A program made the translations under genes and the position numbers. 23,043 bases of DNA from a virus (Duplodnaviria > Heunggongvirae > Uroviricota > Caudoviricetes), in IMG/VR virus record IMGVR_UViG_3300045988_132558, positions 1 to 23,043 of that record; one strand, written 5' to 3'. The notes under the pieces were generated by a model, which ran no database searches, was not told where the DNA came from, and was given only the letters and a program-made list of their open reading frames with translations. Positions 20,322 through 21,487 of this stretch are shown here, in pieces. Each line of letters starts with the position of its first letter. Position 1 is the stretch's first letter.

Positions 20322-21239
20322 ATGGCTGAAAATAAAATTTATGCTGTGTTAACTGATCGTGGCGCGCAGTTAGAAGCCGGCGCGCTGGCGTCAGGCGTTC
20401 CAGTGGTGCTGAGCAAATTTGTTATCGGTGACGCGAACGGAAACGACGATGTTACGCCAGACCCGGCACGAACAGCATTAATTCACGAGACGTATCGCGG
20501 GGATATTAAATCCGCAGAAAATAGCGGTAACCAGGTTATTTTTACGCTATACGTACCGCCCGATACCGGCGGTTATACTATCCGTGAAGTTGGGATATTA
20601 ACAGATAAAGGTGAACTGTACTCTGTAGCGCGTTCGCCGGATATTTTAAAACCCACGGACAGTAACGGCGCGCTGATTTCAATCACGTATAAATACACCC
20701 TCGCGGTGTCCAGCACGTCTACAGTTAATGTTGTTATTGATAACAGTAGCGGTATGAGCCAGGCTGATGCTGATAAACGCTATTTGCAGATAAGCAAAAA
20801 TTTATCTGAAATTAAAGATAAAGGTGAAACAGCGCAACAAGCAGGGCGAGAGAATCTCGGCATTGATTTAAACCAATATTATACAAAAAATGAGGTGGAT
20901 GTTTTACTGGATGATGACAGCGGGGACGATCCCGTGCCAGTAGTATCAGCATTTGATGCTGTCGGTGCAACTGTATACGCCGGATTTTCATATGGAAATG
21001 GTACCGTCATGCATTATAAACCAGGAGACATGATACCTGGCTCATTAATTTATCCAGCGTATTCTTATCTAAAAGATTCTAATTTAATTGCTAATGTTGT
21101 TATTTCTATCGGATATTCCCAAACGAGCCTTCCGGGGACATGGATGTTAAGTGGGTATATGCCAGAAAGTTATGAGGGGCCGAATGCTGAAGATATTTTC
21201 TCCGCAAAACTCGCAACAAATTTTACCAGGGTAGTTTGA
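20322..21239 (+). CDS. Tail fibre protein with P2 gpH-like N-terminal domain and short divergent C-terminal domain, 305 aa
   Basis: N-terminus matches the conserved P2 H anchor region (VIGDANGNDD.TPDPA.TALIHETYRG, YVPPDTGGYTIREVGIL). The C-terminal third is visibly AT-rich and unrelated. Confidence 0.65.
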   Translation: MAENKIYAVLTDRGAQLEAGALASGVPVVLSKFVIGDANGNDDVTPDPARTALIHETYRGDIKSAENSGNQVIFTLYVPPDTGGYTIREVGILTDKGELYSVARSPDILKPTDSNGALISITYKYTLAVSSTSTVNVVIDNSSGMSQADADKRYLQISKNLSEIKDKGETAQQAGRENLGIDLNQYYTKNEVDVLLDDDSGDDPVPVVSAFDAVGATVYAGFSYGNGTVMHYKPGDMIPGSLIYPAYSYLKDSNLIANVVISIGYSQTSLPGTWMLSGYMPESYEGPNAEDIFSAKLATNFTRVV

Positions 21240-21487
21240 TTTATATGCCAATTATTAATGATTTCATAAATATAAAATCACCGAAATTCACAAGTGCATC
21301 GAATAATTCAATTGATATTACCTGTGATATCAAAAATATCGGTAATGCTATTCTATTCACTGCATCTAAAACCGATTCCACATTATATGGAAGGAATTTA
21401 TACGAGCGAGCGTTGGCGGGGGAATTTGGTGATGTTGCGGAATACGTCGCTCCAGTTATAACTGAATCAGGAGAACAAAGTAAATGA
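21236..21487 (+). CDS. Putative tail-fibre assembly chaperone (gpG position), 83 aa
   Basis: Small AT-rich ORF between fibre and sheath genes, where P2-type phages encode the chaperone. Shorter than typical; no motif recognised. Confidence 0.3.
   Translation: MIYMPIINDFINIKSPKFTSASNNSIDITCDIKNIGNAILFTASKTDSTLYGRNLYERALAGEFGDVAEYVAPVITESGEQSK

Follow-up and report, generated by a model that had tools for sequence, protein, structure and literature searches.

The DNA analysed here (IMG/VR record IMGVR_UViG_3300045988_132558, positions 1 to 23,043, which we call the window) belongs to a tailed virus of the class Caudoviricetes and is part of an Escherichia coli prophage. At positions 20,322 to 21,487 it carries a tail fibre gene and, just behind it, a small open reading frame (ORF) in the position of a fibre chaperone. 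We consider it likely that this region is the receptor-binding module of the fibre, with a distal knob and a partner resembling half of a tail fibre assembly (Tfa) protein exchanged as a unit.

Positions 19698-22100 are 99.9% identical to the C41 and YZMc3-1 chromosomes, and a related tail module is found in 666 of 5426 complete E. coli genomes. The C41 prophage adjoins yodB and zinT. Its head and packaging genes are of lambda type (terminase, gpW, portal, S49 protease, major capsid protein and FI) and its contractile tail is of P2 type, the order being V, W, J, I, fibre, small ORF, sheath, tube and onward. The four ORFs before the fibre match the Pfam families Phage_base_V, GPW_gp25, Baseplate_J and Tail_P2_I. 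The host phage is a temperate E. coli myovirus combining a lambda-like head with a P2-like V-W-J-I-H-sheath tail.

The fibre ORF (20322-21239) encodes 305 amino acids (aa). The small ORF (21236-21487) would encode 83 aa from a TTG codon, or 80 aa from an ATG at 21245 that is the start called by PGAP in the near-identical C41 genome and that matches the start of 77-aa homologues. With the ATG start it begins 5 nt past the fibre stop codon, and its own stop overlaps the sheath start codon (ATGA). Scanning the fibre-helper-sheath region for promoters and terminators gave no signal above chance, in keeping with a Tfa-type helper gene that directly follows its fibre gene and is co-transcribed with it. 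A preliminary description of the locus, made from the letters alone, had remarked on an unusually small AT-rich ORF in the chaperone position; its GC content is indeed 35%, and it sits between fibre and sheath as stated. Table 1 gives the subdivision of the region.

Table 1. Subdivision of the fibre, small ORF and adjoining sheath sequence (positions in the window)
Feature	Positions	Strand	Basis
Fibre anchor, residues 1-143, P2 gpH-type baseplate-attachment ('tail-collar fibre') domain	20322..20750	+	Pfam PF12571, P2 gpH alignment
Fibre neck, residues 144-193, motif 'DKRYLQISKNLSEIKDKGETAQQAGRENLGIDL', putative left-hand recombination junction zone	20751..20900	+	Identity split, blastn ends
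Fibre knob, residues 194-305 and stop, presumed receptor-binding domain	20901..21239	+	No DNA homology to the E24377A, GF43 and SK1144 types
80-aa ORF, predicted stand-alone N-terminal domain of Tfa-like family	21245..21487	+	PHROG and profile searches
First 36 codons of sheath gene, conserved right-hand flank	21484..21591	+	blastn homology resumes, 86-96% identity with all relatives

The fibre begins with a baseplate anchor. PF12571 matches residues 4-143 (E 2e-31, 109 bits with a cut-off of 23), and BLASTP aligns residues 28-149 to residues 28-151 of P2 gpH (33% identity, E 1e-17), with nothing aligned past residue 149. The anchor DNA is 86-91% identical to that of all eight relatives compared. 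phrog_5075 spans residues 1-193. The initial estimate, that about the first 130 residues resemble the P2 H anchor, was thus close as to the P2 H-like start and too short as to the extent, the anchor running to residues 143-193 depending on the partner and ending in the neck motif. The neck is 94% identical to that of the nearest metagenomic relative (L006) versus 64-85% for the other relatives, and its motif weakly matches residues 80-122 of Mu fibre S (E 0.4, not significant by itself).

The last 112 fibre residues form a small knob most likely contacting the host. The knob C-terminus reads ...LPGTWMLSGY...NFTRVV. Its DNA is 92% identical to L006 and 61-63% identical to the RM10042, L008 and L014 types, with no DNA homology to the E24377A, GF43 and SK1144 types. 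No Pfam or NCBIfam model matches it. In PDB the knob profile has a single link, and a weak one (E 0.017), namely with the C-terminus of gp47 of phage Pa193, a part left unmodelled in a structure where only residues 1-340 were built (PMC11456595). In a phage collection tblastn found a single marginal match, and a word-indexed protein search with the knob as query returned nothing; we suspect a limit of the word index or of clustering there, not true absence, because knob-bearing fibres neighbour small-ORF homologues taken from the same collection. A single-sequence AlphaFold2 (AF2) model of the knob was unusable (pLDDT 35).

The small ORF is better connected. Its close homologues score E 1e-29 to 1e-44, and phrog_1795 and phrog_1141 match it over the N-terminal 70-80 positions of each profile. 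Among 1.84 billion representatives searched with a profile, 1969 were relatives at E ≤0.001 (family representatives counted at 50% identity). Their shared domain of ∼70 residues forms the N-terminus of proteins of 67-195 aa, with one exception, P0046, where it follows the fibre in the same polypeptide. The C-termini of longer members are Caudo_TAP, Phage_tail_APC or DUF4376 (the last in P0060, P0079 and P0154), and no Pfam model covers the N-domain itself in these proteins. In phages, homologues bear the annotation of tail fibre assembly protein (e.g. P-Eib ORF-191, phiO18P), and the family is seen in myoviruses, podovirus-like contigs and Pseudomonas therapeutic phages. A related-locus search with one alignment found 11 viral loci and none among GTDB species representatives.

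For the window protein itself there was no Pfam match even at E up to 10, no NCBIfam match, no similarity to P2 gpG and no real match of its profiles among PDB sequences; nor was a solved structure found for either the partner domain or the knob. The C-terminal helical domain of Caudo_TAP/PF16778 type was not found in it, the protein ending ∼12 residues past the N-domain. Its AF2 model (pLDDT 82.7) has a beta-beta-beta-helix fold, three strands and a helix, with no significant neighbour among solved structures, the N-domains of Mu and Pam3 included. In BFVD the clear structural neighbours are phage proteins of 82-169 aa, and those of 82-99 aa share the fold.

The reading of the small ORF as P2 gpG or a Caudo_TAP protein in miniature was rejected, given the lack of similarity and the different N-domain family. 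From these matches it is predicted to be the N-terminal domain of a Tfa-like family standing alone, without the C-terminal oligomerisation domain. Since published Tfa models divide these proteins into an N-domain that binds the fibre tip and a C-domain that trimerises, the window protein would be the tip-binding half alone. This half-size helper is a widespread but uncurated variant. The label of miniature chaperone in the preliminary description holds insofar as the protein has a fibre-adjacent Tfa-like N-domain, and fails insofar as it is not a small gpG and has no conserved C-terminal domain.

The small ORF is a real gene, as its homologues, its large family, its ratio of non-synonymous to synonymous divergence (dN/dS), its 5-nt spacing from the fibre and its ATGA overlap all indicate. 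Against three relatives dN/dS is 0.15-0.27, with dS up to 0.96, and the ORF is under purifying selection; in the same genome pairs its dN is 0.13-0.19 versus 0.33-0.46 for the knob. The pairing of a ∼305-aa fibre with a 77-aa ORF recurs behind a different, HK97-type head module in L008 and L009, and the length of the ORF stays at 77-80 aa across lineages with different head modules. No leftover DNA lies 3′ of the ORF, because it ends in the overlap with the sheath start.

To compare the slot between anchor and sheath we fetched four sister E. coli prophages (E24377A, GF43, RM10042 and SK1144) and added four further loci for the identity table. The relatives are collinear up to the fibre anchor and again from the sheath on, and the slot between differs: at least five different cassettes occupy it in related E. 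coli prophages. In the window type a 305-aa fibre is followed by the 80-aa ORF; in the E24377A / SE11 type no gene lies between a 382-aa fibre and the sheath; the GF43 type has a 374-aa fibre and a canonical 192-aa Caudo_TAP protein (PF02413, E 5e-17); and fibres of 317 and 394 aa are followed by ORFs of 77 and 129 aa in the RM10042 and SK1144 types, respectively. With blastn, homology to the sister prophages is lost at 20867-20900 (E24377A, GF43, SK1144) or 21051 (RM10042 type) and regained at 21471-21483.

The two sides of these breakpoints have different nearest relatives. Gene J is 99.9% identical to that of RM10042, and sheath residues 37-501 are 99.6-99.8% identical to those of E24377A. 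For fibre residues 144-305 (92-94%) and the small ORF (87%) the nearest relative is L006, whose sheath variable domain is unrelated to that of the window. Cassette and flanks thus have, on sequence identity, the incongruent ancestry of a mosaic. Of 5426 complete E. coli genomes only 2 have the distal 611 nt, and 13 further ones have the RM10042-type small ORF at 75% identity. Such exchange of a receptor-binding cassette is ordinary phage mosaicism. The proposal that the locus is a swapped cassette is in this way supported, with five alleles, breakpoints at 20750-20900 and 21471-21483, flanks nearest to RM10042 and E24377A and a cassette nearest to L006; the distal domain is not conserved across relatives with the rest of the tail module.

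A second swapped segment lies directly downstream, at sheath residues 37-200 (21592-22083). It is 99-100% identical to E24377A and GF43 and unrelated or ∼55% identical in RM10042, SK1144, L006, L008 and L014, in which the rest of the sheath is 74-97% identical. This segment has 52% GC, so is not AT-rich, and is probably an exposed insertion domain.

Base composition had been offered as a mark of the exchange. The distal fibre and small ORF (20901-21487) have 38.5% GC versus 49.3% for the window, the 2.4th percentile among segments of the same size, and 20771-21357, with 36.5%, is the lowest point among the structural genes. The knob has 41.6% GC. At third codon positions the GC fraction drops to 0.31 (distal fibre) and 0.26 (small ORF), with 0.41-0.63 in neighbouring genes, so the AT-richness first noticed by eye is borne out by computation. 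Genes W and I are likewise at ∼43-44% GC. Two non-structural stretches are equally AT-rich: 6741-7327 (36% GC), which takes in the last part of the lysis region as well as small hypothetical ORFs, and 531-1117 (38% GC). The AT shift at the fibre end is real yet moderate, and is not unique. Every allele of the slot is AT-rich (37-43% GC versus ∼49% in the flanks), and low GC is therefore a mark of the gene pool that supplies the slot, not a sign or date of recent transfer. The exchange itself stands, and a recent import does not follow from composition.

The link between knob and partner was surveyed in viral loci. A hand-made degenerate DNA pattern for PFTA..D...HGR, run on IMG/VR, gave at least 120 loci, and all 121 pattern matches were confirmed by the family hidden Markov model (HMM). 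Among the matches listed, to which the ORF and locus counts that follow refer, 104 distinct ORFs were closed at the 3′ end. The domain stands alone (≤20 residues after it) in 40 of these, is followed by >50 further residues in 59, and is intermediate in the other 5. The domain-only ORFs lie inside contigs, many of them from unrelated phages, and the short form is therefore recurrent. An upstream ORF of ≥80 aa made 95 loci scorable, and at 94 of them that ORF ended in G.W(8-45 residues)R[IVT][SA...], typically as ...GTWRCMGY...TLWLRIS. Of 4479 six-frame ORFs in the survey loci, 142 have the motif (at most ∼3%), mostly the upstream fibres themselves, and we estimate the background at under 1%. 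Domain and knob are strictly paired among the matches listed. The window, RM10042, SK1144 and E24377A fibres all end in this same knob type.

One locus, L053 (IMG/VR contig 3300044712_000086), has two copies of the partner domain ∼640 nt apart, one after a knob-bearing ORF and the other without it.

Two points are new here: the identity of the small ORF as a member, lacking the C-domain, of a very large uncurated family of Tfa-like N-domains, and the strict pairing of that family with an equally uncurated knob.

Within the E. coli lineage the same partner takes several forms. The E24377A fibre (WP_000829620.1, L002 9620-10768) has the domain fused in frame at its C-terminus (HMM E 2e-13, residues 329-377 of 382). 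The junction reads '...ALVMAQRIP-IGNISK-MLNIRDPYY...', a short linker following '...QRIP', and the internal M has the look of a start codon that once opened an ORF of its own. This fusion argues for a physical association of fibre and partner. The 129-aa SK1144 partner consists of the same domain and a helical tail; frameshifted copies of the SK1144 type, 84-96 aa long (P0009, P0010 and L018 3501-3791), illustrate one route to loss of the C-terminus. The frameshift, apparently in an A-rich run, changes '...KFVKKEQTQK' to '...KFVKKSRRK...'. GF43 has an unrelated tip with its canonical Tfa.

Several known systems bear on the function of this pair. Phage P2, of the Peduoviridae, has the same V-W-J-I-H-x order, a homologous N-terminal attachment domain (PF12571) and a helper directly after the fibre. 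Its gpH is 669 aa long, however, in contrast to the 305 aa of the window fibre, with the likeness confined to the anchor; its gpG has 175 aa and is unrelated to the 80-aa helper, which has no Caudo_TAP match; and in P2 a terminator, fun(Z) and the pF promoter follow the helper, whereas the window has no terminator or promoter between helper and sheath. In Mu Tfa (PDB 5YVQ) and gp25 of cyanophage Pam3, encoded just after the fibre, a variable, tip-specific N-domain of ∼55-95 residues precedes a C-terminal helical region, which has its counterpart in the longer members of the window family (Caudo_TAP or Phage_tail_APC). For both proteins one account, which cites North et al. 2019 on Mu Tfa, assigns tip binding to the non-conserved N-domain and trimerisation to the conserved helices of the C-terminus (PMC9608196). 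In Alteromonas phage V22 a DUF4376 protein is a proven fibre chaperone (PMC7289586). This intermolecular chaperone, gp27, shares DUF4376 with some members of the window family, although the window ORF has none; the members that join the N-domain to DUF4376 therefore link the family to an experimentally shown chaperone class.

The gp47 fibres of Pbunavirus (PB1, E217, Pa193) have the same knob motif (...SPTGTWRCMGY...SLFQRV) and are represented in the survey by L110 and L127. The product of the gene downstream, 140-142 aa long, has the same domain at its N-terminus and keeps a C-terminal tail of ∼84 aa, and the fibres, of 846-971 aa, are far longer than that of the window. T5 pb1, the K1F endosialidase and peptidase S74 proteins have intramolecular chaperones, to which the E24377A-type fusion is formally alike; the window helper differs in being a separate gene with no S74 or endosialidase-chaperone match.

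We propose that the fibre's N-terminal domain plugs into the gpI/gpJ wedge, followed by the neck motif and then the knob. Each copy of the 80-aa protein would bind the side or tip of a nascent knob, protect it and help it fold, and might stay on the tip as a cap; trimerisation would be supplied by the fibre's own N-terminal and neck parts. The 80-aa protein would accordingly act as a minimal fibre-tip chaperone or cap. Knob and partner gene would travel together by homologous recombination, with a left crossover in the anchor or neck motif and a right crossover where the sheath gene begins with 36 conserved codons, such that a unit of ∼570-740 bp is replaced and new host specificities arise.

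Four considerations weigh against this proposal. Binding of the knob by the 80-aa protein, and help in its folding, are putative. The protein is without the domain that published models hold to be the conserved core of Tfa. Modelling gave no usable fold for the knob, and 'receptor-binding' is therefore deduced from position and variability. Finally, AT-richness is common to all alleles and by itself is no proof of recent transfer.

How the 80-aa protein should be classed is less certain than the exchange of the module. We suggest tentatively that it represents a distinct, common 'half' class of fibre-assembly protein that binds tips without a trimerising C-domain, and that is possibly a cap. 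The main rival is that it is a retained adhesin or cap, that is, a permanent distal component of the fibre like Mu Tfa or gp38 of T2 and S16, co-determining specificity and not acting as a transient chaperone. The natural fusions to the fibre C-terminus in the E24377A type and P0046 favour this, as does the inheritance of the domain always with a knob among the matches listed, and Mu Tfa stays on the virion according to two accounts (PMC9608196, PMC7289586). The fused forms could nevertheless be cleaved after folding, and the Pam3 N-domain, homologous in role, covers receptor loops and is absent from virions (PMC9608196). The small protein also evolves more slowly than the knob, by the dN values given above, which is the opposite of the expectation for the main host-contact surface. 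We regard a permanent component as rather unlikely.

Still less probable is that the small ORF is a functionless, decaying remnant of a full-length Tfa gene that has lost its C-terminal half. The frameshift truncations of the SK1144-type protein show that such loss happens, and the small ORF is indeed without the conserved C-terminal domain. Purifying selection over substantial synonymous divergence, the constant length behind different head modules, the clean junction with the sheath gene, the 40 domain-only cases among the 104 distinct viral loci listed and the short BFVD proteins of the same fold all speak against decay, and we consider the remnant unlikely. The suggestion of an in-situ switch of host range, through an invertible segment (of the Mu G, P1 C or e14 Pin kind) or a diversity-generating retroelement, is rejected as very improbable, since the inverted repeats in 19600-22200 are only imperfect pairs of 14-18 nt expected by chance, the minus strand, whose ORFs there are short or antisense within the sheath, encodes no second version of the fibre 3′ end or of a chaperone, no template-like direct repeat of the knob is present, and the annotation of the entire C41 prophage includes neither an invertase nor a reverse transcriptase.

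Some further observations concern the remainder of the prophage. Gene I ends differently in the window: one nucleotide present in C41, E24377A and RM10042 is missing at ∼20308-20309 (GT-GAG for GTGGAG), so that gpI finishes with a single R in place of its last six residues (EIGPNG) and the 8-nt overlap with the fibre gene is lost. Either a sequencing error or a real mutation could account for this. The S49 head protease gene (12754-14061) is an intact 435-aa ORF in the window and is called an incomplete pseudogene by PGAP in C41 (L001 13420-14409), where the head decoration gene is also unannotated; the window apparently differs from the C41 annotation in this respect. In L008 and L009 (positions 1-1100; compare 12754-15484 in the window) a fused protease-capsid gene of HK97 type, 694 aa long, takes the place of the lambda-type S49, D and E head genes beside the same P2-type tail module, an instance of mosaicism between head and tail modules.

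A second fibre gene, with a 'prophage tail fibre N-terminal' domain of lambda Stf type, follows gpD at the end of the C41 prophage (L001 27728-28738; 336 aa), ∼4.4 kb beyond the right end of the window. In GF43 (L003 17282-19556) the second fibre has 608 aa and is followed by a 139-aa ORF, and SK1144 keeps only the 139-aa ORF. Two sets of fibres may be present in this family of phages.

The targets of phages and tailocins are set by tail-fibre tips and their helpers, which are the parts that engineers swap. This locus offers probable natural crossover points, on the left in the neck motif and on the right in the first 36 codons of the sheath gene, around a compact unit of ∼570 bp (a 112-residue knob and an 80-residue partner) that already suits a P2-type baseplate. 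Within one E. coli prophage lineage the split state (window) stands beside the fused (E24377A), the tailed (SK1144) and the canonical-Tfa one (GF43), which amounts to a natural experiment. If it is true that the domain-only form suffices, Tfa models centred on C-terminal oligomerisation would need qualification: the C-domain, held to be the conserved core of Tfa, would be dispensable for the 'GTW...RIS' type of knob, and designers of synthetic fibres would gain the smallest helper known for a fibre.

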